A stretch of DNA of 64,000 nucleotides, taken from assembly GCF_000143415.4 (NCBI RefSeq), contig NW_003314423.1, positions 12,011 to 76,010 of the forward strand. Reading direction: 5' to 3'. The notes under the pieces are model-generated. The model was not told the DNA's origin and did not search any database. It worked only from the letters and a program-made list of their open reading frames with translations. Source of the stretch: Selaginella moellendorffii. Lineage: Eukaryota; Plantae; Lycopodiophyta. The position numbers and the translations under genes are program-made. This document shows positions 8,944 to 58,572 of this stretch, piece after piece. Position 1 is the first letter of the stretch, and each line of letters starts with the position of its first letter.

Positions 8944-8992
8944 CACATTCTTGTGACAAGAGCTTTGTGTCTAGACTTTAATCTCTATGGTT

Positions 8993-11152: not shown

Positions 11153-11543
11153 TCTCGGGTCTCCTCCATGACTTTCAATACTTCATCATCCCTAACAGTT
11201 TTACTGGAGTCTAATGAGTCAGTCCCTGAAGTAAAGTGCCAGCTTTTGTGAATGACCGCCACGACTTTCGTCCGTAAAAGAGAAAAGAGAAAAGTGATGG
11301 CTGAGCTATTTTGCTCTTTGCTGTATGTGGAGCATCTCATTGTACAACAAGGACTTTGAAGATTCCAAAGGTGTTTGTCGTGATGCAAGGTCTGACGGTT
11401 GACGGCCTCTAAATATATTAAAAAAGCATCCAAAAAGAGTTGATGAGAAGTCACATTGGCTTAAATAGCGAGTGACACAAACTCCTTGCTCTAGAACTGT
11501 TGTTCTAGTGAAGTTCCAAGGTTTTCATGGCTACTTGTGATCG

Positions 11544-14009
11544 ATGAACGCGGCCGCCTATGCCCGGCTCATCAAATCCTACACCGTCTCTCGCGATCTC
11601 GTCCAGGGCAAGTGCGTCCACGTCCAGATCCTCCACTCCCATCTCGCCACCAACACCTTTCTCGCTAATCTCATCGTCGAGATGTATGGCAAATGTGGTA
11701 GCCTGGGCGATGCGCGAGCGGTTTTTCACTCCCTGCCCTCGCCCAATCTCTTCTCCTGGAATATCGTCATCTCGGCGTGTGCCGCGAATGGGGATTTCTT
11801 CGAGGCCATGCGCCTCTTCCACGCCATGCCCGAAAAGACCCAAATCGCAGCCACTGTGATGATCCGTGTCTATACAGAGCTTGGTCACATAGAAGAAGCA
11901 AGGTCTATTTTTGAGAATTTGCCACGGCGAGATCCAGTATCCTGGACTTGCCTGCTTCAAGCATATGCCACACAGGGGCATCCAGTGCTGGCAAAACTTC
12001 TTTTTGACAAGATGCCCGAGTGGGATGTGGTGTCATCTACGGCAGCGATGGGTGCTTGCGTACACTGTGGCTTTTTGGGTGACGCAAAAGTTATGTTTGA
12101 TCGTATGTCAAGACGCAATGTAGTCACTTGGACGACACTTATTTCAGCAAATGCCTCTATTGGGCATTTGCTATATTTTGCAAGAGAAGCGTTTGATCGA
12201 ATGCCTGAGAGGAACATCGTCACCTGGAACGCGATGATCTCTGGCTATGGCGAGGCCGGTGAAGTAGCCGAGTCGCGGAGGCTTTTCGACTCCATGGCCG
12301 AGCAGAACGTTATCTCCTGGAATACGATGATGGGCACTTATGCCCAGCACGGGCATCCACTGCGCGTTTGGCAGCTCTTCGATGGAATGCCGCAGCGCAA
12401 CGTCGTCTCCTGGAATGGATTGATCGCCGCGCTCGCAATCAACGATCTGGAGCTCATGGACCAGGTGTTCGATCGGATGCCCCACACGGATTCCATCTCG
12501 TGGAACACGGTGATGACGGCGCACGCCCAATCCGGGGACCTGGAGCGCGCCAAGGCGGCGTTTGATCGATCGCCCAGGAGAGATCTCGTGTCCTGGAACG
12601 GGATGATCGCGGCGTACGCGCAGCACAGCCAGATGGATCGAGCGAGAGTGGTGTTTGACATGATGGGCGATCGAAACACCACGTCCTGGAACACCATGGC
12701 CGAGGGCTACTGCCGGAGTGGATGTGTTCCGGAGGCGTGCTCAATCTTCCACGGCAGCCCACAGCGCGATCTCCTCTCCTGGACCGCGATGATGGTCGCG
12801 TTCGCGGAGAACGGGATCGTCGACGGCGTCAAGAACCTCTTCGACCGGATCCCGCACAGGGACGCGGTGTGCTGCACGGCGATGCTGGACGCGCTGGCGG
12901 CGCAGGGGCGCGTGATCGAGGCGGATGAGGTGTTTGCCTCGATGCGCGAGAGGGATGGAGCGGCTTGGAACGCGATGATCCAGGCCAATGTCGTCAACGC
13001 GCGCCTGGATCAAGCCAAGGAGCTCTTCGATCAGATGGACCGCCGGTGCCGGATCTCCTGGGACACGCTGCTTCAGGGGTTTGTGGCCGATCGATCCGTG
13101 GAGTGCGCCAAGGATCTGTACGATCGGATGTCCCAGCACGGGGTCTCATCGTGGACGTCGATGATTCAAGCATTTGCCCAAAGAGGGCATTTCGAGAAAG
13201 CTAAGGATATCTTCACTCATATGCCACGAAGGGATGTCATTGTGTGGACGGCTTTGCTATCCGTGTTCTCGCAGGAGGGCCAATTGCAGTTTGCTACAGA
13301 GGTTTTCGAGCGAATTCCACAGGCAAATCTCGTCTCGTGGGCTGCAATCGTTGCAGCAAATGCCCAAAACGGGGATATTGGACGCGCGAAAGAGCTGCTT
13401 GATTGCATGCCCGAAAGCACTGTCTCCGCCTGCAACATTCTTATCGGTTCATACGCGCAGCACGGCAGGTTGGCGGAGGCGAAAGCCCTCTTCGACACAA
13501 TGCAGGAAAGAGATACTGTCTCCTGGACCGCGCTCGCAACAGCGAATGCCCACGCGGGGCATCACGGCGCCGTGCAGCTACTCTTCGCATCGATGCTGCT
13601 CGACGGGATCAAGCCGGACGAGCTGACGTTCCTGTGCCTGCTCTCGTCGGTGGCATACACGGGCATCGTGGACGAGGTCCGAGAGAGGTTCATGGCAATG
13701 GTGGCGGACAATTTCGTGGAGCCGACGCTGCAGCACTACTGCTGCCTCATCGCAGCACTGGCGAGGGCGGGGAGGCTTCGCGATGCCGAGGAGCTCATTC
13801 ACTCGATGCCATTCATGCCCGAGCAAGTGGCGTGGATGACACTCTTGTCAGCGTCAAGAAACGACACTGATTTGGTGCGTGGGCGTCACGCAGCGCAGCA
13901 TGTCATGAGGATCAAACCGCAAGACTCTGCATCGTATGTGTTGCTCTTCAACCTCTACAGTCATGGTCTAGCAAGTTCGGAAAATGTAGTAAAAGAGCGA
14001 ATGAAATAG
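11544..14009 (+). CDS. PLS-class PPR protein with E domain, no DYW (821 aa)
   Basis: Long run of 31-aa PPR motifs (MPERNIVTWNAMISGY); HYCCLIAALARAGRLRDAE..WMTLLSA..SASYVLLFNLY. Confidence 0.95.
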   Translation: MNAAAYARLIKSYTVSRDLVQGKCVHVQILHSHLATNTFLANLIVEMYGKCGSLGDARAVFHSLPSPNLFSWNIVISACAANGDFFEAMRLFHAMPEKTQIAATVMIRVYTELGHIEEARSIFENLPRRDPVSWTCLLQAYATQGHPVLAKLLFDKMPEWDVVSSTAAMGACVHCGFLGDAKVMFDRMSRRNVVTWTTLISANASIGHLLYFAREAFDRMPERNIVTWNAMISGYGEAGEVAESRRLFDSMAEQNVISWNTMMGTYAQHGHPLRVWQLFDGMPQRNVVSWNGLIAALAINDLELMDQVFDRMPHTDSISWNTVMTAHAQSGDLERAKAAFDRSPRRDLVSWNGMIAAYAQHSQMDRARVVFDMMGDRNTTSWNTMAEGYCRSGCVPEACSIFHGSPQRDLLSWTAMMVAFAENGIVDGVKNLFDRIPHRDAVCCTAMLDALAAQGRVIEADEVFASMRERDGAAWNAMIQANVVNARLDQAKELFDQMDRRCRISWDTLLQGFVADRSVECAKDLYDRMSQHGVSSWTSMIQAFAQRGHFEKAKDIFTHMPRRDVIVWTALLSVFSQEGQLQFATEVFERIPQANLVSWAAIVAANAQNGDIGRAKELLDCMPESTVSACNILIGSYAQHGRLAEAKALFDTMQERDTVSWTALATANAHAGHHGAVQLLFASMLLDGIKPDELTFLCLLSSVAYTGIVDEVRERFMAMVADNFVEPTLQHYCCLIAALARAGRLRDAEELIHSMPFMPEQVAWMTLLSASRNDTDLVRGRHAAQHVMRIKPQDSASYVLLFNLYSHGLASSENVVKERMK

Positions 14010-24492: not shown

Positions 24493-25640
24493 TGTAGCGA
24501 ACGTGGTTTTAACCCTTTATCCTATGGTGATTTACCATAGGATAACACCACGAAGCGGAACCTAAACCCTCTTTGTGCCACGTGACAGATGCCACGTGTC
24601 ACATGCCACGTGTCCATGCCACGTGTCCATAGGAACCCGAAGTTCAGGGCCTTGGGCCACTGAACGAAGGAACGGTGCCAAACTCCCAAGCACGAAGCCA
24701 AGGAGTGACGGAACCGAACCACGGAACAACTCCCGAGCATAAAGCCCAAGGAGCGAAGGGACAGGAGCCCGGAGCGACTTGGAACAGTCCTGGAGCAACT
24801 AGCATCCCAATGCCAGGACCAGCACACAAAACGGAGCCAAACAGAGTCTGGTGCTATTTCGGCATACCGGTGGCCTAACGTGAGGACATGGGTACTCCAC
24901 CAACTAGCATGGAATGGAACTTGGGCTTAGACCCAAGCCGGACGCAGAACAAGGACAGGCACGCAAGCGGGAGCTAGACTATGCCTCAGGTTGGTCGGCC
25001 ATGCCCGATCTACCCACTATCCCTACTATACATTTGGAACCCCCCACAGCCCCCCCCCCCCTGAGGAACACACGCTTTGGGCTTTCACCCTAAGCCTCCC
25101 TTAGTATCAGGAGTTAGTCTCTGGGACAAGCTCGAAACTTACTAAATATGGAATGTCCCTAGATTGCGAATTTGGACATGGGACGAACACCATTGTGTTC
25201 AGGACGATCTCTACATTCCGTAGATATGCCAAATGAGCGAATCTGGACACTTTCCATAAATAGCATTTGGGACCGAAATGAGACTAACACAAAGGGCATG
25301 ATAGCGAGGGTGTTTGGCAGACACGGTAAGCTATCATGTAGCGATATTGAGGGACCAATCTCAATACGCGAGGGTTCTTGTCAAGCCAGTGCAAGACAGA
25401 GCAAAAGAGAACTAACAAGCCGGGCCAAGTATGCTCAGCTCAATAGACACTTAGGAATTCCTTCCTTATGCTCATCCGGCCAAGTACAGATGCAAAGTCC
25501 AGTTTACTAACACTTGAACAAGAGGGGCCGATAAAAGGAACCAGCAATACCGACCTCTTGCCATCGTGGCAGTAAGGTAAGAGTGTCTGTAAGGACTAGT
25601 CGACAGGTAACTTTCGATACCCGAAGTCACATTCGCGACA
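24493..25640 (-). repeat. 3' LTR of element 24493-31780
   Basis: About 99% identical to 30633-31780 (12 transitions counted by eye). Confidence 0.95.
24577..24627. promoter_or_regulatory. Four tandem G-box/ABRE motifs in the LTR (also 30717-30767)
   Basis: gccacgtgac, then gccacgtgtc three times at 13-14 bp spacing. Confidence 0.6.
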
Positions 25641-30632: not shown

Positions 30633-31780
30633 TGTAGCGAACGTGGTTTTAACCCTTTATCCTATGGTGATTTACCATAGGATAACACCACGAAGCGGAA
30701 CCTAAACCCTCTTTGTGCCACGTGACAGATGCCACGTGTCACATGCCACGTGTCCATGCCACGTGTCCATAGGAACCCGAAGTTCAGGGCCTTGGGCCAC
30801 TGAACGAAGGAACGGTGCCAAACTCCCAAGCACGAAGCCAAGGAGTGACGGAACCGAACCACGGAACAACTCCCGAGCATAAAGCCCAAGGAGCGAAGGG
30901 ACAGGAGCCCGAAGCGACTTGGAACAGTCCTGGAGCAACCAGCATCCCAATGCCAGGACCAGCACACAAAACGGAGCCAAACAGAGTCTGGCGCTATTTC
31001 GGCATACCGGTGGCCTAACGTGAGGACATGGGTACTCCACCAACTAACATGGAATGGAACTTGGGCTTAGACCCAAGCCGGACGTAGAACAAGGACAGGC
31101 ACGCAAGCGGGAGCTAGACTATGCCTCAGGTTGGTCGGCCATGCCCGACCTACCCACTATCCCTACTATACATTTGGAACCCCCCACAGCCCCCCCCCCC
31201 TTGAGGAACACACACTTTGGGCTTTCACCCCAAGCCTCCCTTAGTATCAGGAGTTAGTCTCTGGGACAAGCTCGAAACTTACTAAATATGGAATGTCCCT
31301 AGATTGCGAATTTGGACATGGGACGAACACCATTGTGTTCAGGACGATCTCTACATTCCGTAGATATGCCAAATGAGCGAATCTGGACACTTTCCATAAA
31401 TAGCATTTGGGACCGAAATGAGACTAACACAAAGGGCATGATAGCGAGGGTGTTTGGCAGACACGGTAAGCTATCATGTAGCGATATTGAGGGACCAATC
31501 TCAATACGCGAGGGTTCTTGTCAAGCCAGTGCAAGACAGAGCAAAAGAGAACTAACAAGCCGGGCCAAGTATGCTCAGCTCAATAGACACTTAGGAATTC
31601 CTTCCTTATGCTCATCCGGCCAAGTACAGATGCAAAGTCCAGTTTACTAACACTTGAACAAGAGGGGCCGATAAAAGGAACCAGCAATACCGACCTCCTG
31701 CCATCGTGGCAGTAAGGTAAGAGTGTCCGTAAGGACTAGTCAACAGGTAACTTTCGATACCCGAAGTCACATTCGCGACA
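30633..31780 (-). repeat. 5' LTR of element 24493-31780
   Basis: Adjacent to the tRNA-iMet PBS; matches 24493-25640. Confidence 0.95.
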
Positions 31781-33432: not shown

Positions 33433-34181
33433 TGTAAACCACAAATTTTTCCTTTCCAATTTGCCAGCTTATCTTATCTATCCAACTAATACTGCCTTAG
33501 CCTTAATTAAGTTCCCTTGCCAAGGTTCTCACCTATTGTATCAGCTCCTACTTCGTCCTTGATTTCAGCTATTCCCTGCACAAACAACAGAGTGTTTGCT
33601 ATCTATCCACAAATTCCCAAATCTCTCCTAATCCCCCTCTCTGGGTTAGATTAGACTTAAGGTTCAACTACATTCTCCACAAGCAACCAAGCACACCAAG
33701 CCACCAGGTTCCTAACATCCCTTGGTACAACAAAACTTTATCATGGAACCCTAAGCTCTATTTCGTTAAAGTGGGAATTGTCATTATCCCACTTGTAAAA
33801 TAAGGTTTCCAAACCTTTATATAGTATATAAATATAACAAAATTCAACTGCATTGAGGCACATGCCATTTTATTTTAAACAAGGAAATGTCTACTCAATC
33901 ACTTCTCCTCCCCCTGCCACTGCTTCACCTCTCTCTTCTCCTTGTCATCGTCGTCCAATTTCTTTCCATCCTTTTAATATTGGCTCAGTTGCTCCGAGTC
34001 TAGGTGGAGCCCAAGTCCCCATTCAATCTTTACTTTCCCCTTATTAATAAAACAACTTCGTAGACTTCCAATAACATGCTGTAAATGCAAATCCTCTCAA
34101 AGAATTGTCTTTTAATATTAATACAATGGCATGGAACCCCATGCCACAATAAGTTACATTTTTAAATAAATACATGCCATC

Positions 34182-35031
34182 TCAGACTGTTATTTTTTGC
34201 CTCCAATGCCTATACAATAATCTTGGAATTTCATCACTCTCCACACTATCAGGATTTAAACCCAATAGTAATGCCATCTCTTCTCTAATACGTCCACACT
34301 CATGTTCAGTGGTCGAAGAACCCATCCGGTTGAGCAGATTATGGAGATGCGGATAGTGCTTGGCTAGACAATATACATGCCATAAATGATGACTGGTGTC
34401 TGTCCGATCAAATGGCTTCTGATATACTGTTCCATCTACCATTTGGTTGATTTCTGCAGCCACCTCCTGGATTGGCCGGTTCTCTATCACCATCGCTTCA
34501 AGCCGTTTTGCAAGGTCCCCCAGAACATACGGTTTCTTCTCCCTAGTTTCCATACTGCAAGAGATGGGGTGCACTGCATATGTGTGCGTGTTCGCTGCAG
34601 TTTTAATCGGCGAGTCATCGATGATGAGGATTTCACTTGACCTAGCAGTCCGGTTCATCACTACAGCCTCTGGCTTGACGAAGATGGGCTTGCTACCCCT
34701 CACATGGACCATAGTCAAGCAATCCTCCTGCGTTAGGAGAAAGTCAAATGGTAATATTACTCGCGTCTGATCGTGCATCATCTGTAGCAACGTTAATGCA
34801 TTGTGGCGCATCATGGATGTCCAAACTTCCAATTGCAAATTGAACCCGGCCCTCTGTTTTAAGTGTCGCATGGTCATTATTAGATCCCGCAGTTTCTCCC
34901 GTGTGATTAATGTGAATCTGTCTCTTTTGACCAACTTGCGACCGCAGGCTTTGGAGGGTGCAGTGACATTCGAGGACGAGCCACGCTCATGGGAGAAAAG
35001 GACACCGTTCAGATCAAAAACGATACAGTAC
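34182..35031 (-). CDS. FCP1/NIF-like HAD phosphatase domain (last exon of the cargo gene)
   Basis: FDLNGVL motif just upstream of and in frame with the 250-aa ORF; later LEVWTSMM and IIDDSPIK motifs. Confidence 0.7.
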
Positions 35032-38000
35032 TTTCACCGTGACTCTGAAATGAAATGCGTCAGCATAAAAAATGGTACAAGTCAATTTTACCATCTACAA
35101 TATTAGCGAATGGTGCTCCCGATGGTCGTTTAGAGGGTTTTGGTCGAGGAAACGTGAAGGGCGGAAATACTCTCCTCTGCAATGTGGGGTCAATCGCATC
35201 CGATGGCGTGTGGGCACATGCCATTTCAGCTGTAGACTCTGGTACAACTGGCTCAACAGTGGCATGGGGTGGTTCCGATGGCGTGTGATCACACGCCATT
35301 TCAGCTGGTGCCTCCGTTGGCAAAGTGGACATGACCGAACAGGCAGCAGGGGCGGTGTAGGGAGGTTCCAACGGCGCGTAGTCAGACGATTGGGCACACG
35401 TTGGAAATGAGGATACGACCGGCTTGGCGGCTGGGGCGGCCTCATGCGGGTCCAATGGCGCCTGGTCACCGTCAGTTGGATACGTGGACAAGATTGACTC
35501 AGTGGTATGGGCAGCATCAAGTGGAGCGTGGTCAGCTTGCTTGGCGTTGATATGGATAGTAGCCTCCACCAGCTCTGATGACTCTTGCAGGCAAGTAGAG
35601 TCCACTGGCGGATCCATATGCATGTCCAAATATCTCCCTTCGATTGAGATGGTATCCTCCCGTGCTACTAAAAACAAACTCATTAGCACATTGAATCGAC
35701 TATACTGTATTTACCATCAACTGCTATTGAGGAACTAGGACCGATATCACTTGGGCGCACTGCTGATTCTGAAGGATTGGACATACGTTTCGACCCTTGC
35801 TTGGCACTATCCTTCCTCGACACTAAAGGCTAGAGTTTGTATCTTAATTCAACTGAATAATCTCTACTTACCATTTCTTCTGCGACCTACATGGACAATG
35901 TTAGAAATGGTAAAAGGTTAGGAATGGATGTACTATTATTTACCTGATGGTTTGTCTTGTATGACCTTCCTCCGCTGCTCTTTGGCCACCTCAGGCTGGC
36001 CATCGTCGTCATCATCGTCATTGTCGTTATTGTGATCGTCACCATTGTGAGGACCATCCAAGTCCTCTTCGTCCTCCTCTTCTTCATCCTCCTCTTCTTC
36101 GTCCTCCTCTTCTTTGTCCTCCTCTTCGTCCTTCTGCTCTTCCTGCTCATTATCTTTCTCTGGCTCCTCATCCCCCTCCTACATTTCTTCCATAGGCTGC
36201 TCAGGCTGGATGGCTTGTTTTTCCAGGACCATCTTGCGAAAATCATCTGGCCGAGTCTCCATCTCAAAATACAAGACATCCATAGCCTGTTTTAGTGCGT
36301 GACCTAGGACCGTATCCTCACCCGACTATCTTAACATGGTTTCTGCACGTTCTTGCACCCTTCGAAGACGACGAGATGAGAAAAACGTGGCCCTGACTTG
36401 AAAAGCATCCCTCATCCATTGTACCTCTCTATTGAGATTGGGGAAGGGGAGTCCGCCATAGGAATTTGAGTCAGAAGGTGGTGATTGGCTCCTTTCACTC
36501 AGCCCTTGATCTGCAATGAATGGCATGAGCACACACGCCATAACCGCGAGGCATTACCTATCATCTTTTCGTTGCCCTTCTTCCTTTTCGAATCAAACGC
36601 CTCTGATCCCGACGACTATCCAACATGCTTTCGCTTTTTATGACCACTGTCAGTTTGAGCTTGGCTGGTGCTTGCCTGTTTTGCCTTTGAAGAAGTGTCT
36701 CCTGCAAGGAATGGCATGAGACCACACGCTATTGCAAATATAATTTGTACCTCCTTTTTTCCTATTGCTTGTCTGTTTGTCCTTCTTCGACACGCCACCA
36801 GTGCGCTTTTCAGTCCTCGTGTCTGAATATTCACAACGATCTATAATCAAAATGGCGTGAGGCCTCACGTGACCTTACCTTGTGCAGGTTGTGAGCTCGG
36901 CCTAACATCAGTAGCTGTTAACGCCGTTTCAGCATCTGGGGGTGGCCACGCTCCTGCATACAGAGCTTGTGAAATAACATTTAAACTTAAAGTGCGTACT
37001 CACCAGGTTTGTAGAGAAGATACTGTTTTTCTATGGCAACTGTAATTATATGCTCCATTGAAGTCACCTCTTCAATGGAGTTTGTCACCGCAACACACGG
37101 GACACCCTTGAGTAGTGCGGCTCGAAAGAATAGTCCGCCGCAGTTGTACTCGACAACGCATTTGCCCTTGGAGTCACCTGCTATTGCGTTGAAGACCCAG
37201 CTGAGCATTTCCCATGCTGCACCTGGAGCTTTCTTTGGATTCGAAAGCTCCATAGCCGTCTTCAGTTCCTCAGGCACGGGTAAATTGACCTCCCTCAGAT
37301 CAATTCGATCGGCTTTGTTGAACGAAGCTGGGAAGTCACTCCAGTCCCACTCTGCTGCAGGACCAATAACAAGGGCGAGTGTGAAGATGCGGACATTCGT
37401 CGGTATCTTCTTCTTAGCCATTATCCCATGGATCTCCCGCATCTCCTTGCCTTTCAACCGAGCCTTCACCTCGTTCAAGGCCTTCCAGAACTTGTGATAG
37501 GATTCGGAGTCGTAGATCATATAGTGGACTGAAGATTCCACCTCCGCAAGTCCCACCATTAAGTCAATGATGGAGCTGACTTCGTCTGCATGAGTGATCT
37601 CCTCATTTGTGAAGTCCATCACACAAAAGATGTTCTTGACCTGCTCATCTACGCGGGAAACGATGCTCCTCCACCTTTGATCCTCATCCGAATTCACGTA
37701 TACCTGGTAAGGTTCTCGATAGGCCTCTGCTGCGGGGTCGAGCTGTTTCTAAAGCCGGTGGTCGACATCCCTCTTAATGAAATTTGGATACTGATCCAAC
37801 TTCTCAGCTTTACTTTTCATGGCATCCCGCAGCAGATCGATGAACTTGGGGGCCCCCTTCACGTAGTCGTCGATGTCTTCATTTGACAACTCCAGCTCTT
37901 CCATCATCTCTTGCGTGGTGTCGATGCTCACCCTCGCCACGGCCACTTGCTCGAAGATCCAATCCTTCAATAGCGCACGAGCTCTCAGAGTCGTGCACAA

Positions 38001-39787
38001 GTCCTTGTATGTCACAATATGGCCGGGAGTCATTTTGGTCTTGTTGAAGACTACCTCACCACGTAGAAGAGCATTAGCCACTGTCAGAAGGTTGTCGTCG
38101 TCTAGAGACCGCGAGAAACGCAAGGCGTTGAGCTTCAAATCATTGGGCTTCCGACCGTCCTCCACACCCATTGAGTTTAGCAACTCCCCGTCATGGTACC
38201 TCCTCAGCACATCTACCCATTTGTCAAAAACAACTTTTGTCGCGAGTAGAATGTTATGGATGCTGAGTGTGTCATTGACCCCCAGTGTTTTCGAGAGAAG
38301 ACTCGAGAATTCCTGCAATGGAAATGGCGTGAGGCCACATGCTATGCCACATGCAACGAGGCTTACCTGCCAGGCGCTAGTTGCTAGTGCACGTCCTTGT
38401 CCTGGTTTTTGTGGCTTCTTCAGTTGAACCCAGAGCTTCCGTGTTCGTGCCAATGTCTCGTGCAGACCCGATTTGTAGCACGTTTCTTGCTTGACATTCT
38501 GCGCGTGGGAGATGTATATGATAGATCGGAGGGGCGAGTTGCCTTTTATCAGGCGGACAACTCTTGTCTTGAAGACTTTCTTTACCTCCTCGCCCACCAT
38601 AATATCCACAACTATCTGTTGCATCGCCAAGCTAGAATGCTGCCCGGAGACGGCATAGAACCGGATGTTCTGATCGTCCAACACCTTCCTATTGATCAAG
38701 TCTGGAAACCTCGTCTCGCCCTTCATTGTTCGGTAGTAGGGGATCACGTCTGCGATGTCGGGTGTTACTGGACTTGCCAGCATCTTCTGCTTCTGTTTCT
38801 CCACCCACTCATCAGATACTAGCCTGTGGTTGTATTTGCTTTGGATCTCGATACGGCTCACGTCGATTGTATATACTTTGTTGGAATAGTAACAAGTACT
38901 ATTATCTGCGACGATTTTTGCTGCCTCTTCTTGCTCTTTCTGCTCTTTGCGGCTCTTCTTTTTGGTGGGTGTAGTGTTCGAACCCGAGGCAATGGCATCA
39001 CCGAGTAGCTTCTTTTTTGGAGCAGCAGAGTCGGACGTCGGCTTGAGCTTGACCACCCTTTTCTGCTTCGGGGTAGTTTCCAGATCGACCCCCTTCCCCT
39101 TCGCTTCGCAAACTGGAGGCACTCTCAACGGCTCAATGTTGGAATATAGTTTTTGAACATCGCCGTAGGTGAGGTCCGTGGATTCCATGTGATCTTCATA
39201 GACCCGCAGCGTCTTTGAAATTGTGGGCCTCCTGGACAACCTCTCCCTAGCTCCCTCTAGGAATTCCTCATAGCCGCTGCCCCCCTCCGGGAAGCCGCTA
39301 GGATGTGCAAGGTGGATCTTGAAGGCGGACGCTGTCTCTACCACAAGTGCCAGTCCATATTCTTGCATGGAACTACATGGAGTGTCTGTCACTTGGATGA
39401 GGATCCCCATGCATTCTTTTCTCCCACCATCTGTGTTGTACAGCATCAGATCCTCGCCTTCCATCCCGAAAGTCCAACTGGTGAGCTCCTCCCCCTTCTC
39501 TGCATCCACATTGACAGTAGCTGGAAGAAGAACGCAATTCCTCGCCTGTTCAGAAATGCACAACAATTAGAGCTGACAGATGAAAAGCTAGCAGCTGGAA
39601 ATAACGTGAGGCCACACGCCATTCACCACTGCATCAGATGTCTTGAGGTTGCATCCTAAGATGGCGTGAGGCTACACACCATCTGTAACCGGACTGCACT
39701 CGAGAGCCCAATCGGTGCATGCCAATGTTGCTACTGAATGGCATGTGGCCTCATGCCATTTTCTACTTGGCCTAAAAGACTTACCAT
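34182..39787 (-). pseudogene. Multi-exon TE cargo gene: ParB/Srx-like + degenerate DNA amino-MTase-like + acidic linker + FCP1/NIF-like HAD phosphatase; at least 4 in-frame nonsense codons
   Basis: Predicted ATG 39787-39785, intron 39784-39546, then the 605-aa and 236-aa ORFs, which are in one frame separated by a single TAG (37749-37751). Motifs: IDVSRIEI..FYAVSGQHS; KCVVEYNCGGLFFRAALLKGVPCVAV; D/E tract at 36000-36180; YCIVFDLNGVL..VWTS..ILIIDDSPIK. Confidence 0.65.
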
Positions 39788-42737
39788 TTGAAGCCGAATG
39801 GAGGCCGTGACAATCGAGGCCGGACTCGCTGGCGAATGTGCACTGTGTGTGCAGCGGATCGTAGCAGCAAGGCTACTCTACCACTTACAGTTGGAGAGTG
39901 GTGCTGAAATCTCCCGGGACGCCAAGTGGGCTGCGTGTGGGTGGCGGAGTGGGCGGCGGAGTTGGCGGCGAAGTTACAAACTGGGTGTGTCTTGAAGTGG
40001 ACGCCGATGCACACGAGCGCGATGCGAGCGCGAGTGTGATGCAAGCGCGAGTGGATGCCGATGCACACGAGAAACCTGTAGAGAAGTGAGCGTGATCGCG
40101 AGTGGGAGCGCGATGCGAGCGGGAGCGCGATGCGAGCGGGAGCGCGAGTGTGATACGAGCGCGAGCGCGAGTACAAAGCAAAATGCAAAACCTAACCTCA
40201 CACGCGCGAAATGTCACAACGGTTGGTAATCCTGCCACGTCATCATTCCTCGGACTTGGGCGCCACCATTAATTTCTGGATTGCCGCGCGCATGCAAGCA
40301 CGCAAAATCCAAAAGAAATCCGCAACGTCATCATTCCTCGGACTGCATGCACGCGAAATCCAAAAGAAAGATCATGATTGGGATATCATTTAATACCCTC
40401 GCTATATTTATACCATGCATGATTGGATATTCCAAAGCATCTTGTATTTCCAAAAATGGCAGATGTTCAGCTAAATAAAGAAATTCTATCTGTTTCTATT
40501 TTTCTCTCAAATCAATATTATAGCGTGTGGGCTCATGCAATTTTGAACCAAAGAAACCCAAAAAACGTTAGACCCAAAATATTTTGAAAAAACCCAAAAA
40601 ACCCTAAACATTTTAAACCCAAAAATCCAGGTGTCCTGTGGCGTTATTCCTTGAATGGCGTGTGGGCGCATGCCATTTTCAGGGCCAAATGCTGAATGGA
40701 GAAAAATTCCCTTTCAGTGCAAATGCTGCAAGAGGCAGATGCCGAGCACAAAGGACTGTAACTACCTCACATGACACAGATAAACTTTTCTCTATTTGGC
40801 AAAGATAAACTTTATAGCGTGTGGGCTCATGCAATTTTGAACCCAAAAAATGCACCAAAAAATTCTCGGCGTCATCTGGCGTTATCTCTTGAATGGCGTG
40901 GGGCCGCATGCCATTTTCAGGGGCACATAGGAGTATATTCCTAGGATATTCTGACACGCGCGAGATTTTTTTGAGTTTTCTGGAGATCCAACCGTTAGAT
41001 CGCAACTAGATTTTACAGAATGGTATACAATGTCTTTCTTGATGACCCTGCAAAGAAGCATCTCGATCGGACACCACATAAGACCACACGAGCCTTACAA
41101 TATTTCAGGGGCATTTGCCATAGATCCGACCGTTATTTTGCTCCAAGATTTTACAGTTTGGTGTGCATTGACCTTTCCATCGACACTGCAAAGGGACATC
41201 ACAATCAGATGCGGGATCACAAGAAACTAACTTCACTAACTCTGGTTTCACCAAGATCTACGTAAGGAGTTATGAAATGAAAGGACCCTCTCTATTGAAA
41301 TGTGTTTATGGTTCTAGGGGCATTGTGACATATCAAAGGATTTTGCATCAAGTTCTGTATTTACATGTTTATCAAGCTACTGAATTGCTAAACCCTAAAC
41401 CCTAAACATGTGGCAAATGCTGTGTGAAGAAAGATGCCCTTTCTGGGCAAATGCTGTAAGAGGCAGATGCCGAGCAGATGTATCTCAGGCTAGCGAAGGG
41501 GACAAACGAAAGCTAGCTATAAACATGACGGGATGCAAATAGATTACTAGGCTGGTCCTACGAAAATCAAAAACCATAATTGAAAACATTGAAAATGCAA
41601 AAAGAAAGGTTTATAATATTTTTGAATTTTAAGCAACCAAAGGAATGTAAGTAGGGCATGTGTTTGTAAGTTTAAAAATGCCTCAACCACTTAAATTCCC
41701 AAGTAAATAAAGCTGTTTCTATTTTTGGTACAGGTAAACTTTATAGCGTGTGGGCTCATGCAATTTTGAACCCAAAAATGCACAAAAAAATGCTCGACTA
41801 GCATTATTCTTTGAATGGCGTGTGGCCTTATGTCGAGCATTATTCTTTGAATGGCGTGTGGCCTTATATTGCCATAAATGGACGTACACACACAGCATAA
41901 TTATTCCTTTACACGGCAAATAATCTTGGTGCGGATCGCTGACATGGCATGGCAAAGTTCGAATCACTGACATGGCACAGCTGGATCGAGGCAAGGACAT
42001 GATGTGACAAAGTTCAACCTCCGACAGCAAAGTCTAGAAGCTACTCAGTTTGAAATTTGTCAAAGGAATCATAAGATCTGGTTTGTCAGAGGATTTGATG
42101 TGACGTTCAAGCGTGTGTTATTTTTGAATTCTCGAACTCATTCCTAGGTCTATCATTTTTGTGCGCCGTGTTCTTGGTTCTGCTGAGCGCAGTGAGCGCT
42201 GCTTGTGTAAGCGGCGTTGTGGGCTGTGGTTTATGCGTCTACGAGCGGTTGCGGCATTGCGAGCGCCATTGCGAGCGGCAGTTTATGTGAGTGGCAGTTT
42301 GTGCGAGCGGCGCTACGAGCAGTTGCGGTGTTGCGAGCGACGCTACGAGTAGTTGCGGTGTTGCGAGCGGCACTGTCTTTGGTGTGGCTACCGCTTCCTC
42401 TTGATATTCGGCACTTGTGCTTCCTGGTATGTTCACCATGGAATGGCTTAGGACCACATTTAGAAATGGCATGAGGCCACATGCCATCTTGGGCCCTTGC
42501 AATTTCATGGCTAGCGTATTGTCATGTATGTTTTTACTTGCCTGCAGTTGTGTGTATATCAAGATGGCATGAGGGCTCATGCCAATTTTGTGAATGCGAA
42601 ATTTCACGTGGGTGTCAATAGCATGTTTGAATAATGGCATGTGGCCTCATGCTATTGAGGTTGTTTGGTATGTTATGATTTAGGCCATTCTCCAATCATT
42701 TTTTGTATGGTCTTAACTTCTTTTCTGCACTTTCAGA

Positions 42738-45700
42738 ATGGCCTTCAGGGTTGGGGAAAAGGTTTACATTTTGAATGGTGGGAAGAGAGTTGCAAAAGGG
42801 ACCCTTGTGTCTATGGATCGGAACTTTGTTATACACTGTCAAAGGCTTAGGGAAGGCAATGCTGCTGTATCAGTAGAGACTGTCTTCGATGGGAATGTGG
42901 TCGCTATTGAACGAGGAGAGATGGTCGTCGGGGTAAATGTTGTTGTTGCCTTGAAAAATCTTCAGAAGAAAGCAGATGTTGGGGACAGCGCAAGTGCGAT
43001 GCATGTTCCCTCCGTGGATCTTAAGAACCGTGCTACATGGATTCAGGCAAAGGTGTTTCTAAACAACCCCGAGGGGGAGGTGGTAGCTGAGGGCTTAGCC
43101 ACAGTTGTCGATCCAAGAGATGCGGTTGCTAATCAAGAATTGGGCTGGGATGATATTGGAGTTGCGATTTTAGAGGTTGTTGACACAGAAGAAAACAGTC
43201 TGACTATTGGAAGCATTGTGCGGTGGAAATTGAGGCACTTAGTGTTTGAGAATGTGAAGGATTCACAATCAAACACCATTACAACTGATGACAGAACATC
43301 TCTTCATGGGAAAAGAAAGTACACCTTCCTAAAGCGCAGCCAAAGGGATCTGAGCAACGAACCGAAAAGGCAGAAAATGGCGATGGAGGTTCGAATGGTC
43401 TCGACAGTTGCTTGTTGCAAGAGGAGGTGCTGTCAACATGCTGATTGGGATGCTATTGAAGAGGAGAGAGCAAGATACAAGACATTGTCCTGGAAGGCAG
43501 CTCGCAATTTTGTGTATGAGGCATTACGGTCATCTGTTGATGCTTCAGAACATCAGGTGGGGGGCATGGTCTTCCAGAAGGGTTTGGTCTGCATGAAGGC
43601 ATGGAGAATCATTTATGGAGTCCCTCGAACCACATTCTACAGAATCAAAACTGAGTTCGAGGAACAAAGGGTTCAACAGGCAGTCCATGGGAACGACGGT
43701 ACGCACAAAACCAGGGGTCATGTTGTATATGGAGAGGCAATCTTCAAGAGGTTTGTCGAGACATGTAGCGAGCAGCAACCACATAAAACCCGCCTCTTGG
43801 AAGATGGAACACGAGACACCCAACGAGTTCTCCCTTCCATGTATACCAAGGGGGCCATATTGGAAGATGTGAATCGGGAACTCCAGAGTAATGGCTACAG
43901 GAAGCTGAGCCAATCTAGATTTAGTAGATTGTGGAGCAACAGGTTCAGGGATGTGAGTATAGGAAAGTACTCCAGCTTTTCAAAGTGTGACGAGTGCACT
44001 GCTATCAAAATGGCTTTGTCGAAGAATTTTTGCAGCGCTCAAGAGCGAGAGATGTTGGTTAGAAGGCGGCTCGACCACAACATCGAGCAGAGAAGCTGCA
44101 GGACTGCATATTATCATAACAGGATTCTCTCCATGGAGAGACCTGACTCTTACCTCTGCATCATCCACGACAAAATGGACCAGAAAAAGACATGCTTACC
44201 TCGACTCAATCCTGCCCCCAAGGCAATCTCTTCATCCATGCAGCTGCCTGTGTCTCTGTTTGGCATAATCGCTCATGGGCATGGTGCCCAGAACTATGGG
44301 AACTTCTTTGTACCTCTATGGGGTGGCGGGGGTGCAAACATGATGATTGCGTCCCTAGCAAAACACTTAAGGTCTCTGCAAAGTGCGCAGACTGAGCTGA
44401 ACGGCCAACCCTTGCATAAGGCCCTTGTCGATCAAACCCCATACAGGGTTCAGCTGGAGGAGGAGCAAAGGCTTGCAGTATCGCGTGGGGCCCCATGCCA
44501 TCCCAGTGAATATGTTGGCCGTCAGATTGTAGGGTTATCACGTGAGGCCTCATGCCATTCCGACGAGGCTGGTCGCCCGGTGAATGCACAGCCTCATCCA
44601 AACGAAGCAGAATCTCAAGGAAGTTCTTGCGGCCGATGTGGCCTTCCACCCCATCTTCTGCTCCAAACAGACAATGCTGGCAGTGAGAACAAAAACATGT
44701 ACGTCTTCGCGTACTTGGCGATGCTTGTTGCCAAAGGCATATTTGAAACGGTTACACTTGGCTTTCTCATGGTTGGGCACACTCATGAAGACGTCGATGC
44801 CATGTTCAGTCACCTAGCAGAGTCCCTCTGGCGATCCAATGTCCTCACCCTCCCACAACTCTACGATGAATTCCAAAATTGCATCAAAGGCACTGTTGAA
44901 GCTGCACTTCTGACAGAGGTTCCAGACTTTAAGGGGTTTGTAAGAGGCTACATCAGGGACGGATCCGAAATGCTGATTAGCCACTCCAAGCCTCTTCAGT
45001 TTCATTTCAGCATGTGTGACGATGCTCCAGTGATGAGGTACAAGATGAGAGAATGGGACACAGTGTGGCTGCCAGTGGACGGCATTGAACTCTTCAAGAG
45101 AGATCCCATAACTGGGGAACCTATGATTCCTCAGGGTTCCCCACGGCCGATGCACCCGGATGGACTCAAAGACCAGGAAAGTATAGTGGCCGGGATTAGA
45201 CAGCATATTGCCTTCTGGAAGAGGGGGTTGGTGTTTGGTGGAGAATCCTATTTTCAGAGGTGCAAACCTTTGCTCGAATACTGGGAGAAGATTATATCTG
45301 CTATCCAAAATGGGCCGGTTGTATATGAAGAATTGGAAGAGTCCTTTTGGCCAGAACCCAGAGCACCAGATAGTAGCGGAACAATGTCCTCTGGAAATGC
45401 AGTGACAGATAACGATGTTGAGGATCACTATTGTGGGCCGAGGAACAAGAAGCCGGATTCAGCATTCAATCCAGTACAGGTCTGCAAAGGAATGGTCGTG
45501 CTTGTCAGACCCAGTAATAAAAAACAAATGATATGGGTGGGGCGCTGCATCACTGATGCAGAGGAGGACGCAGAAACTAACTCCTTCAATATAACTGTGG
45601 AGTGGTTCAAGCCAAGTTCCGGATATACGAACGATTGCCTAGAAAAGAGATGGGTGCTGAATCCAAGGGATCCCAGCATGAGCATATCGGTGGATAATGT

Positions 45701-45879
45701 TGTGCATGGTTGGATGCGGAAGCAGAGTGCCACCATCACCTTGCCAGACCATGCAAGAGATGCAGCAAGAGCATTCATAACCCGGGTTCAAGGTGAGATT
45801 CATGAATATTCCTTTACTAAGTTTCTAATGTATTTTATTTCAAGGTGAACAATCCGAATCTGAATCAGAGGAGGCGTGA
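42738..45879 (+). CDS. DD(D/E) transposase, Sola-like (DUF7869-type), about 1030 aa; small terminal exon 45845-45879
   Basis: Open 1036-codon ORF with CCKRRCC, FSKCDEC..H, IIHDKMDQKKT, LLLQTDNAGSENKN, FLMVGHTHEDVDAMFS. Predicted intron 45793-45844 gives ..TRVQGEQSESESEEA*; 5'-UTR intron 42427-42736. Confidence 0.88.
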
Positions 45880-47669
45880 TGGCATGTGGCCTTACGCCAT
45901 TCCTAAGTGAGATGATACAAATAACAAATAACAAGATCTTTCTCTAAAATGTTATTTAGCATGTGGCTTCATGCCATTGCTCTCCACAATCATGCATTGA
46001 ATTTCTATCCTTGCATAATACTTCTCCATATATATAGCATGTGCGCACATGTGATAGGGTTCATTAGGCCTGATATAGTGTGTGAGGTAAAACAAAGATG
46101 ATGTGACATATGCATTTACCAATCACACGTGCATAAATCTAATAATATGGCGTGTGGCCCATATTAATGGCACATAAACCCATATTGTGGGCTTACGTGC
46201 TTTATGTACCATCATTCCCTTGCAGCGTGTGTGTTGGTTTCCTTTTATAACACAACGAACTCCATATTTTAGGGTGAAGAGCGTTCTCATGGCAAGCACA
46301 AAATCTGTAAGTGAGGCAGAAAAGGAGACGGAGAAGGAGATAGGTGAAGATGTAGAATATATAAGTCTTCCAAACTCCCTGTACTATACTCCAGGTGATC
46401 ATTTTTCTGAACAAACGGCAACATTAACAACTATCGAGAACGCCCCAGTAACGTCAGAGACAACAATCCAAAGCAAAACAACTGACCCGGAGAAGGATGA
46501 TAGTACCGCTGAGAGTACCAAAAAGGAGGTGTCCACTAGCGCTTAGGCTTATAATGGCGTGTGCCCTCATGCCATTTACTTGATCACCAAATACCTTTTT
46601 CCCTTTGCACTAGTATATCTTAATACCGGTCTGAGAAATAGAATGGCATGTGCCCTCAGGCCTTTTACTAAATCACCTTTGAAAGAAATGCAAGCCTCTA
46701 TGTCGTAAAAAAAAGGTACTAGAGAAATTCCTTAATAATATGAATGTTATTTAGTTTCATGAAAATACACTAAGGGTCAAATGAGTTAAATGACTTCTCC
46801 AGACTAGCAATGCCTCTTGCTACACCTTCACAATTAGATTCGTTAGAAAAAGATAACATTGAATAATATCTAAATGTTCTCACCATTAAGTTATATGTCT
46901 GGCTAATAGGAATGACGTTCATCTTGGAAAGCTCACCACACGCTCAATGAACAAACAAATAGTGTGTGCGCGCATGCCATCGCTCTTCTTTAGCTTCAGA
47001 TTCGGCTTGTTCACCTTGACAATGAGATTTATTATACAACCAGATGGACTCAGTCTGGACATAAAGTCACCGCGCTAGTCACCATGCCCCAGATATGTCT
47101 AGCCCCTGGACAAAAAACGTATAATTTCACGTCATTTTCAAATACTTGAAAATTTGTACCTAGTCCCATTTTACTGAATAAATCCCACTTTAACGAAATA
47201 GAGCATCCCTTTAAATCCTAAACCTTGGGCGTAACATTTACTTCGGGACATCAGGGGTAAACATCATGGCCTAATGGCTTGGTATGGGTACCCCTACTCC
47301 CCCACTTCCATCCCAAAGGGAAAACTTAAGCCCTTAGAAAGGGTGAGGACCAATGAGCCGCAAAGTACTCAAGTGGGGCACCACTCCACATGAGCCGAAA
47401 GCACCGCAATCAATTTCCTTTCTGGGAGTGGGAGCTACTCTTGAACACTTCCTTGGGTGGCCCCTCCAGCACCACCTGAGTCCATGCTCATTCCCCTCAG
47501 CTATAGTCTCAACCTCAAGTTAGTTTGGAAGCATCATTAAAGAGTTCCTTCAAAACTAATTCCTAGACCTCACTATATACTTTTGGAACCCCCTACAGCT
47601 GTGCCCCCCCCCCCCCTTAGGAGACACACGCTTTGGGCTTTCACCCCACGACCTATATTAGTATTTAGA

Positions 47670-53626: not shown

Positions 53627-54769
53627 CGTAGGTTGTACGAATCCTCACCTCCATCATTTCTTAAGTGGCCACCGGTCCTTTGTTAGCCTCTGTTGTTCTC
53701 TACTAAGACTTAACATTATCTGCCAAGTATGGTTTTGCATATGGGACCTTCTTTAAGCTCAGTAACTACAACGCTCAGAAGTAATTTTCCATATCATAAA
53801 ACCAATCCTCCACCACCTTATAGTCATTCATTCCCTTGAAGACCGATGGGGGCTTTATTTTGTACTTGGGAATTGCCTGAGGGACTGATTCCACTTTAAT
53901 TTATTCGACCTTGTTCGGTTCCACCTCAGTCCCTACCAAAGGGTCCACACCTTCTGCATTGCTAACATCTGTAGTCTTTCACTTTTTCTTCCGCTTTTTA
54001 TTTTGTATACAAGAGTCTCCAATAGGGCATTGGTCTGAGCCAATTGTCCTTCTAGAACATCCAATTGAGCCTTGGATGACCGAACCTCACCACTGGACTC
54101 CTGTTTGGAAGTTTCCTCACTGGAGTCCTCCTTATGTAAGGATTCCTCATCCATAGCCTCTTGTTTGACTAGAAGCTCCAGCTCTAAAAGAGGTTCTATC
54201 TCCGCCTTACAAACTACCTTTGTCATCTCTTAGCAATCCGCCTTTATCCTTCGCTAAAACTGAGGAAAAAGTTTTGATACCAAATTGTAAGCCATAAATT
54301 TTTCCTCTATAATTTACTAGCTTACCCCGTCTATCCGACCAATATTGCTTTAGCCTTAATTAAGTTCCTTTGTTAAGGTTCCCACCTATTGTACTAGCTC
54401 CTACTTCGTACTACTTGGTTTCAACTACTCCCTACACAAACAATGGAGCATTAGCCATCCATCCACGGATTCTCAAATCTTTCCCAATCCCCTTCCCTAG
54501 GTTAGATTAGATTTAAGGTTCAATTACACTCTCCGCAAACACAAGCAACCAAGCACACCAAACCACCAAGTTCTTAACATCCTTTGGTACAACAAGACTT
54601 AATCATGGAACCCTTTAAATCCCAAGCTTTAGGTGCAACACTTGCTTCCGGACACTAGGGGGAAATACCATGGCCTAATGGCCCAATATAGGTACCCCTA
54701 CTCCCCCACTTCCATCCCAAAGGTAAGGCCCAAACCTCTAGGAAGGGCAAATATCAATGAGCCGCCATA

Positions 54770-56405: not shown

Positions 56406-56832
56406 AACAACACTCGCTTTCTATGTTTGTTAAGTGTTTTGGAGCAGCCTTTAGCACACGTGTTCGACTGGAAGAATCGTGTTCCAGGAGACGCAATATC
56501 TTCAAGGTTAAATTTATAGTTCCAAGACTAATAATAAAAGCATATATGGCTTACACAAAAAAAAAAGAAAAAAAGAAAAAAACTTTTATTATATAGATAA
56601 CTTTTCGAGCCTAAACTTGTATAATGCCATTGCGTAAATAATGTAAGTAGATTCTCCGCCTTATCTCTGTTCTTTATTTGCATCTCGGCTTCAAGCAACT
56701 ACAACATCTTCAGTGTCGACTCGAGACCATCAGGTTTGTTTCAAATCTTGCAAAGTTCCATTTTCAACCGTCAGAGCGGGATATACCTTATTTCTTGTGA
56801 AGTTCCAAGTTTTCCATGGCTACTTGTGATCG

Positions 56833-58572
56833 ATGAACGCGGCCACCTATGCCCGGCTCATAAAATCCTACACCGTCTCTCGCGATCTCGTCCAGGGCAA
56901 GTGCGTCCACGCCCAGATCCTCCACTCCCATCTCGCCACCAACACCTTTCTCGCCAATCTCATCGTCGAGATGTATGGCAAATGTGGTAGGCTGCGCGAT
57001 GCGCGGTTTTTCACTCCCTGCCCTCGCCCAATCTCTTCTCCTGGAATATCGTCATCTCGGGGGATTTCTTCGAGGCCATGCCCTAAAAGACCCAAATCGC
57101 AGCCACTGTGATGATCCGTGTCTATACAGAGCTTGCCCACATAGAAGAAGCAAGGTTTATTTTTGAGGATTTGCCACGGCGAGATCCAGTATCCTGGACT
57201 TGCCTGCTTCAAGCATATGCCACAAAGGGGCATCCACTGTTGTCAAAACTGCTTTTTGGCAAGATGCCCGAGTGGGACGTGGTGTCATCTACGGCAGCGA
57301 TGGGCGCTTGCGTACACTGTGGCTCTTTGGGTGACGCTAAAGTTATGTTTGATCGTATGTCAAGACGCAATGTAGTCACTTGGACGACACTTATTTCAGC
57401 AAATGCCTCTATTGGGCATTTGCTATATTTTGCAAGAGAAGCGTTTGATCGAATGCCTGAGAGGAACATCGTCACCTGGAACTCGATGATCACCGGCTAT
57501 GGCGAGGCCGGTTACGTAGCCGAGTCGCCGACTCCATGGCCGAGCAGAACGTTGTCTCCTGGAACACGATGATGGGCACTTATGCCCAGCGCATCCACTG
57601 CGCGCTTGGCAGCTCTTCGATGGAATGCAACATCGTCTCCTCGAATGGATTGATCGCCGCGCTCGCAATCGCCGATCTGGAGCTCATGGACCAGGCGTTT
57701 GATCGAATGCCCCACACGGATTCCATCTCGTGGAACACGGTGATGACGGCGCACCCCCAATCCGGGGACCTGGAGCGCGCCAAGGCGGCGTTTGATCGAT
57801 CGCCCAGGAGAGATCTCGTGTCCTGGAACGGGATGATCGCGGCGTACGCGCAGCACAGCCAGATGGATCGAGCGAGAGTGGTGTTTGAAATGATGGGCGA
57901 TCGAAACACCACGTCCTGGAACACCATGGCCGAGGGCTACTGCCGGAGTGGATGTGTTCCGCGTGCTCGATCTTCCACGGCAGCCCACAGCGCGATCTCC
58001 CCTCTCCTGGACCGCGATGATGGTGGCGTTCGCGGAGAATGGGATCGTCGACGGCGTCAAGAACCTCTTCGACCGGATCCCGCACAGGGACGCGGTGTGC
58101 TGCACGGCGATGCTGGACGCGCTGGCGGCGCAGGAGCGCGTGATCGAGGCGGAGGAGGTTTTTGCCTCGATGCGCGAGAGGGATGGAGCGGCTTGGAACG
58201 CGATGATCCAGGCCAATGTCGTCAACGCGCGCCTGGATCAAGCCAAGGGGCCGATCGATCCCTGGAGTGCACCAGGATCTGTACGATCGGATGTCCCAGC
58301 ACGGGGTCTCATCGTAGACGTAGCATTTGCCCGAGGCGGGTATTTTGAGAAAGCCAAGGATATCTTCACTCATATGCCACGGAGGGATGTGATTGTGTGG
58401 ACGGCTTTGCTCGCCGTGTTCTCGCAGGAGGGATGACACTCTTGTCAGCTTTAAGAAACGACACTGATTTGGTGTGTGGGCGTCACGCTGCCGCAAGACT
58501 CCGCTGCTCTTCAACCTCTACAGTCATGGTCTAGCAAGCTCTGAAAATGTAGTAAAAGAGCGAATGAAATAG
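56833..58572 (+). pseudogene. PPR pseudogene, copy of 11544-14009
   Basis: Same start (MNAATYARLIKSYTVSRD) and end (gagcgaatgaaatag); multiple frameshifting deletions and a ~555-bp deletion near 58432. Confidence 0.93.

Follow-up and report, generated by a model that had tools for sequence, protein, structure and literature searches.

The window, a 64,000-nucleotide stretch of Selaginella moellendorffii DNA, contains a whole DNA transposon of 13,454 bp (33753..47206), along which 29 copies of a 24-bp quasi-palindrome are dispersed, from 33846 to 46981. We put at about 0.5 the probability of the reading that we favor from the sequence, in which this palindrome is a candidate element-specific docking site for a dimer that the element itself encodes, likely its ParB-like/methyltransferase (MTase)-like accessory protein. 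The palindrome is present in high copy number, is confined to the element, avoids predicted coding DNA and is polar, and different palindromes occur beside related transposases.

The limits of the element come from a junction alignment with an empty-site-like copy. The element sits in a repeat that recurs uninterrupted at ~54490-54680, where CCCT occurs once, and is bordered by two CCCT target-site duplications (TSDs), placed by the alignment at 33749..33752 and 47207..47210 (plus strand). Within these lie 24-bp terminal inverted repeats (TIRs), the left one at 33753..33776 (plus strand) and the right one at 47183..47206 (minus strand), which match at 23 of 24 positions. Contigs from other sequencing runs stop matching at 33751/33752 and 47206, which are the element ends. 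Because they leave at the same ends, and because 64,304 contigs of one DNA run align along the 64-kb window with 85-100% identity, the sequence data indicate that the element belongs to a many-copy family, from which the window copy differs mostly by C-to-T changes. Sola DNA transposons are described as having a 4-bp TSD, TIRs of 11-1124 bp and a DDD transposase (PMC10741241). The CCCT duplications and the 24-bp TIRs lie within these limits and, together with a DUF7869 transposase, appear to fit Sola, an assignment in which the link between DUF7869 and Sola is inferred and the comparison with Sola is by description only. Two runs carrying other organism labels (X5 and X6) contain ~70% of the words of the element, and long X5 contigs match it at ~99%; these matches may come from close species, mixed samples or transfer.

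The position weight matrix (PWM) that gives the 29 copies was trained on the window itself. In the rest of the window (~50 kb), it has one weak match, at 26746, itself part of the training set, and it finds on average 0.45 and at most 2 copies in 60 simulated 13.4-kb sequences. With a degenerate 22-nt pattern (two mismatches or fewer), we obtained 21 distinct sites, 21/21 inside the element, and none in 100 shuffles. These counts agree with the first-pass annotation, which had reported about 30 copies across the element and TIRs devoid of copies (the 24-bp TIRs indeed hold none); its range of 34127..46981 captures the element-wide spread but leaves out the copy at 33846, located 93 nt inside the left end. 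The sequence that it gave for its best copy, at 39737-39760, is correct. That copy is, as described, self-complementary except for a T/T mismatch, but it is the only one that is otherwise perfect: the 10/15 base pair is complementary in 29% of copies, and pairs 1, 4, and 7 in 39-46%. All motif statistics were computed on 28 copies, the one at 41814 being left out as a local duplicate, and 19 of the 28 are strictly polar. Mean pairwise identity is 0.73 within the motif versus 0.26 and 0.27 in the flanks, with a sharp conservation boundary at the 22-24 bp of the palindrome. Within the window, no outcome that the first-pass annotation named as refuting was seen; the motif is far more alike than its flanks, is confined to the element but for the one weak match, and lacks the TSDs of a tiny MITE: direct repeats of 2 nt flank 2/28 copies and repeats of 3-8 nt flank 0/28. 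A MITE is ruled out by this absence of TSDs, which, with the lack of shared ends (flank identity 0.26-0.27), also speaks against an introner; a tandem satellite is ruled out by the spacings between copies, which range from 57 to 1,846 nt, and by the lack of any TRF array covering them.

The earlier description of isolated copies with unrelated flanks holds for most of the element but not for the central cluster (copies 40519, 40654, 40813, 40892, 41742, 41814, and 41850; 40519..41873, plus strand), which lies between two divergent genes in a segment repeated three times. There, copies 40519, 40813, and 41742 have common flanks (repeat family D17) and copies 40654, 40892, and 41814 common upstream flanks, so that these copies are parts of a repeated segment; copy 41814 arises from a 36-bp duplication that is skipped in three of four sequencing runs. 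Such local duplications, which create and remove palindrome copies, would be expected if the copies were neutral relics of a tiny mobile hairpin or of a host transcription-factor site that slippage had multiplied and that persisted only where it was tolerated, in non-coding DNA, and purifying selection on the proteins alone would clear them from coding sequence. We nevertheless hold this explanation to be improbable, given the missing TSDs, the sharp 22-24-bp boundary, the weakness of the single-strand hairpins (median -3.5 kcal/mol), the confinement to the element, and the independent words (palindrome sequences) found in many related elements.

The copies are far from randomly placed. Predicted coding DNA makes up 60% of the element but contains only 4/28 copies (P=7e-7): two of these, 35202 and 35277 (35202..35300), neither of them strictly polar, fall in a repeated low-complexity linker within a predicted exon, and two, 44479 and 44536 (44479..44559, plus strand), in a length-variable insertion of the transposase ORF that separates the first two conserved aspartate blocks (alignment columns ~930-1000). 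Among the nine copies within the accessory gene, seven are in predicted introns (P=4e-7), including 39600, 39660, and 39737 (39600..39760), which occupy two predicted 5' introns and the last of which is the best copy mentioned above. The remaining copies surround the genes. Copies 33846 and 34125 (33846..34148) lie 3' of the accessory gene stop, near the left end; 42465, 42563, and 42633 (42465..42656) lie upstream of the transposase start; and 45878, 45955, 46033, 46553, 46642, and 46958 (45878..46981, plus strand) lie downstream of that gene, the first of them overlapping its predicted TGA stop. Because family contigs have loose ends at 42465, 42564, and 42584, the data suggest that other family members carry extra palindrome copies near 42564. 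GCGAGC-rich microsatellite-like tracts (40021-40172 and 42270-42371), variable among family members, precede each of the two divergent genes. The interval 46178-46960 contains an acidic ORF of 122 codons and, after it, GT-AG stretches in which copies 46553 and 46642 lie; this may be a small spliced gene, the third of the element, or else a 3' extension, and a Pfam search with the ORF gave no match.

Orientation is equally structured. To the left of 40300, six polar copies are on the minus and one on the plus strand, versus eleven plus and one minus to the right (p=0.002; p=0.009 with duplicates collapsed). Polar copies therefore point outward from the center of the element, in the same sense as the two divergent genes, a pattern missed by the statement in the first-pass annotation that both orientations occur, correct as it is. 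Four copies, 36519, 36710, 36851, and 38323 (36519..38346, minus strand), occur one per predicted GT-AG intron of 38-54 nt and end 8-10 nt upstream of the predicted 3' splice site; one of them is non-polar, and the other three are strictly polar and run in the gene's sense. In these four short predicted introns, the 3' half of the word gives a branch-point-like CTCAY 16-18 nt from the predicted 3' splice site, about where a branch point would be expected. This arrangement, together with a polarity that overall follows transcription, is what one would expect from a word that acts mainly at the RNA level through its branch-point-like half, or that seeds introns, its insertion having made them in an introner-like way. 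Against such a role, 21/28 copies are outside mapped introns and 6/12 introns have no word; intron sequences are unrelated beyond the word and lack TSDs; and a branch point does not need dyad symmetry. Moreover, three homologous ORFs end at the W-K/Q-V donor position of intron 38366, and this intron is thus probably older than the word. We consider an RNA-level or intron-seeding function very improbable as the main explanation.

The accessory gene, on the minus strand (34182..39842), was modeled with 12 exons totaling 5,013 nt (~1,670 aa; start not fixed), drawn in one frame through 12 GT-AG introns of 38-129 nt, all predicted. In the window copy it contains five internal stops, at least four of which are sense codons in all four sequencing runs compared. 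Contigs from run X20 cross the predicted introns without gaps; this run was guessed to be RNA but may be DNA, and its contigs therefore say nothing on splicing. Besides a helical middle region and acidic and low-complexity linkers, the predicted protein comprises a weakly supported ParB-like domain (~38550-38890, minus strand) and a degenerate N4/N6-MTase-like domain (~37005-37700, minus strand), both identified by profile comparison, and a NIF/HAD phosphatase domain in the last exon (34182-35033, minus strand; Pfam NIF, E=1.6e-5). HMMER returned 16 proteins at E <=0.001, of which 13 are credible homologues; P0041, P0044, and P0054 were rejected as repetitive false matches and excluded from alignments, and searching a word index with the accessory protein gave no match. 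The named homologues are from S. moellendorffii, Calypogeia fissa, and Riccia sorocarpa; like the nearby PPR genes and the very short introns, they point to a seed-free land plant as host. Four annotated S. moellendorffii genes (P0040 and P0056-P0058) retain the middle and MTase-like parts and have no ParB-like part; they are possibly domesticated.

An invariant F-x-x-x-GQH block in the N-terminal domain can be aligned with Box II of ParB. Compared untrimmed with the ParB_N profile, the ParB-like part reached a probability of 9%; once a variable loop was removed post hoc, this rose to 71% (E=4e-5), with a score of 32.9 versus at most 20.3 for shuffles, above all shuffled and reversed controls. 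A family-profile search with this part gave no match, the single P1 ParB sequence could not be aligned to it, and its single-sequence fold had a pLDDT of 32. The arginine of the Box II GxxR motif (aligned GERR), whose role in ParB is described in PMC12704722, is replaced by GQHS or GQHT in 11/11 sequences (the window protein and 10 homologues). Neither ParA nor a helix-turn-helix (HTH) was found with the accessory protein above cut-off, two Selaginella homologues giving a faint HTH_17 score below it (E 0.14-0.17). The MTase-like part reached a probability of 88.8% (E=2.5e-6, 58 columns) against a profile of nine bacterial N6_N4 methyltransferases, with a score of 48.8 bits versus at most 17 bits for controls. 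Its C-terminal HPxxKP...VLDPFxGSG SAM-binding block (PF01555) is degenerate in the window protein. The catalytic motif of beta-class N4C/N6A MTases is (D/N/S)PP(Y/F); neither PPY nor PPF is present in the domain in any of the eight aligned sequences, which share a single invariant aspartate at the likely position. The first-pass annotation had guessed that the palindrome was a parS-like site for a dimeric protein. The weak ParB-like domain of the predicted accessory protein lends support to this guess, and a candidate dimer site is still the best reading; the missing Box II arginine makes a true parS/ParB clamp doubtful. Searches of phages by tblastn gave nothing useful, and viral contigs, when scanned, contained neither an exact motif nor a relative of one or the other protein.

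On the opposite strand, the transposase gene (42738..45879, plus strand; predicted short last intron at 45793-45844) encodes a putative DDD-type, Sola-like protein whose only Pfam match is DUF7869. The acidic blocks are invariant in 11 relatives at 27-36% identity. A structural model of low confidence (mean pLDDT 59) gave middling matches to Tudor/KOW-like domains at the N terminus, to a winged-helix-like domain (residues 325-411) and, at the C terminus, to a BAH/chromo-like domain, and Foldseek returned no match at E <=0.001. Residues ~894-1025 weakly resemble BAH/chromo/PWWP domains and residues 1-176 Tudor/KOW domains, both below significance; in this model they could be histone readers.

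To survey relatives of the transposase, we scanned metagenomes and obtained 80 loci, 57 of them non-redundant. The window PWM revealed no array in the 80 loci, with six single matches. Another palindrome, likewise in several copies whose flanks are for the most part unrelated, is present in 11/57 non-redundant loci (L001, L003, L009, L018, L032, L038, L039, L053, L062, L064, and L079; transposase identity 28-35%), for which a count at least 2 above the maximum of 8 shuffles per locus was required and flank identity reached up to 0.46. Other flagged loci were set aside as tandem or simple repeats; of three control stretches taken from the window, two also raised a flag, for coding or tandem repeats. 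The clearest case is L009, in which GTCGGCTGCCCGCCGAC occurs, always in the same orientation, in two coding linkers, in the intron, across the stop codon and at two places downstream; this is the layout of the window with another word. The related loci L030, L032, and L038 have related words, and L010 has an additional 31-bp palindrome. One word family recurs at least three times in 34/80 loci, in many of them on both sides of the transposase (loci not de-duplicated, seeds taken from four of them). We identified no TIR pair among the five longest inverted repeats listed per locus. In L037 (1536-8056), L070 (619-6287), and L035 (3043-8120), which belong to the large word family, isolated motif copies stand ~5 kb upstream of the main cluster, as if the element had once extended over a second gene; some of these loci share DNA.

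No accessory gene was detected in the 80 loci, which counts against the accessory protein as the reader of the palindrome, an argument weakened by the short and decayed contigs. It also raises the alternative that the palindromes are the transposase's own sites, an extended subterminal and internal set, inverted between the two halves of the element, that would serve end pairing or transcriptional self-activation. The palindromes track the clade of the transposase, including loci in which an accessory gene is not seen; in one word family, they flank the transposase on either side in many loci; and their polarity is mirror-symmetric about the element center. The model includes the winged-helix-like domain noted above, and a 2026 preprint describes transposases as sequence-specific activators (10.64898/2026.08.24.746577). 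Yet the TIRs hold no copy, most copies are kilobases away from the ends and many are in introns of the accessory gene, and in another transposase superfamily it is ParB-like cargo that goes with inverted repeats (10.1101/2025.02.11.637652). We regard binding by the transposase as somewhat unlikely, and retain the accessory protein as the favored candidate reader.

This preference is in keeping with several known systems. In the 21.5-kb Ectocarpus element Sola1-1_Ec32, a gene opposite the transposase encodes a 1,104-aa protein with ParB-like and N4C/N6A MTase domains; this protein is suggested to bind the element that encodes it and to modify it (PMC12477816). The window element (13.5 kb, ~1,670 aa) is likewise large and Sola-like, with its accessory gene opposite the transposase and an apparently similar domain pairing; as far as the descriptions can be compared, its protein differs by degenerate catalytic motifs, an added NIF/HAD domain and its occurrence in a land plant, and the main text on Sola1-1_Ec32 leaves palindromes unmentioned. 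The red-algal Plavaka protein PAG3 is ParB-like, adjoins tandem inverted-repeat arrays and is proposed to bind its own transposon (10.1101/2025.02.11.637652). It thus shares with the window element a ParB-like accessory protein and inverted-repeat units, but belongs with another transposase superfamily, is described as fused to a 2OG oxygenase and has its arrays beside it, whereas the window has single copies through introns and both genes. ParB-methyltransferase fusions are commonly reported in phages (PMC12704722), certain ParB activators of phages withstand the loss of residues that bind nucleotides (PMC13229309), and ParB-linked methylases are described in algae and fungi (PMC4738411). A many-copy dyad site and the putative domain pairing recall ParB/parS and the phage ParB-N6_N4 fusions; in contrast to ParB/parS, the window protein has no Box II arginine, HTH or ParA, and its gene is eukaryotic and intron-rich. 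Finally, VANC21 of Arabidopsis binds a motif in the introns, intergenic and terminal regions of VANDAL21 (PMC5735166), which, like the palindrome, is element-specific, has one orientation, is gained and lost by duplication and differs between related families. That motif is described as a 9-bp non-palindromic tandem motif in a Mutator-like element, read by an unrelated protein, and binding and demethylation have been demonstrated for VANC21, whereas binding of the palindrome is proposed from sequence. ParB-MTase cargo, and ParB-like cargo beside inverted repeats, are thus already published for algae, and the land-plant version is new; among the openly accessible main texts searched, we found no land-plant element with dispersed intronic palindromes.

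We therefore favor a scenario in which the accessory protein would label the DNA of its element from end to end and so keep the element transcribed or mobile, a VANC-like regulatory or anti-silencing role exerted without methylase or clamp activity. Because it has lost the usual catalytic motifs, the protein would bind or scaffold, perhaps by way of the phosphatase domain, rather than work as a DNA methylase or CTP clamp. Copies would have spread via local duplication and unequal recombination and been kept where no protein was broken, in short introns, at gene ends and in variable linkers. Protein and word would drift together, each family reading its own copies only, as with VANC and VANDAL. 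In a broader version, which we find unlikely, a clade-wide lock-and-key self-recognition would operate in transposons of seed-free land plants: a ParB-methyltransferase fold of phage origin, deprived of its catalytic activity and joined to a phosphatase, would read a family-specific parS-like palindrome element-wide, the asymmetric half of which would serve as the branch point of minimal introns, letting sites sit inside genes, and word and reader would re-diversify in each family. The element combines a sharply defined candidate site of 24 bp with a candidate for its reader, within a high-copy family whose relatives use different words. If the scenario is true, plant transposons would have a second self-recognition system, unrelated to the first, and dyad-reading proteins would be available as a natural series.

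The first-pass annotation had attributed the main variation among copies, CG versus CA/TG, to methyl-C decay. In the 12 motifs of 39540-42760, a single CpG differs from the family contigs (at 39678), although contigs collapse repeats and places that are not listed may still differ. CpG loss is 1/12 in motifs versus 10/145 outside (p=0.6), hence not lower in motifs. Copy-specific decay is thus ruled out as the main source and explains little. Because only this one motif CpG differs, the variation appears to be mostly fixed in the family, with little coming from decay of the window copy; decay long ago in a founding copy is a possible source.

Elsewhere in the window, 24493-24792 and 30633-30932 are 100% identical direct repeats, 6.1 kb apart and extending further, each holding a 29-bp palindrome (24517 and 30657) and a short tandem array; they are likely the LTRs of a young element, and the sole outside motif match (26746) falls between them. 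A cluster of three PPR genes occupies 7261-14009, and a broken partial copy of one of them, 94-97% identical, lies 45 kb away at 56792-58260.
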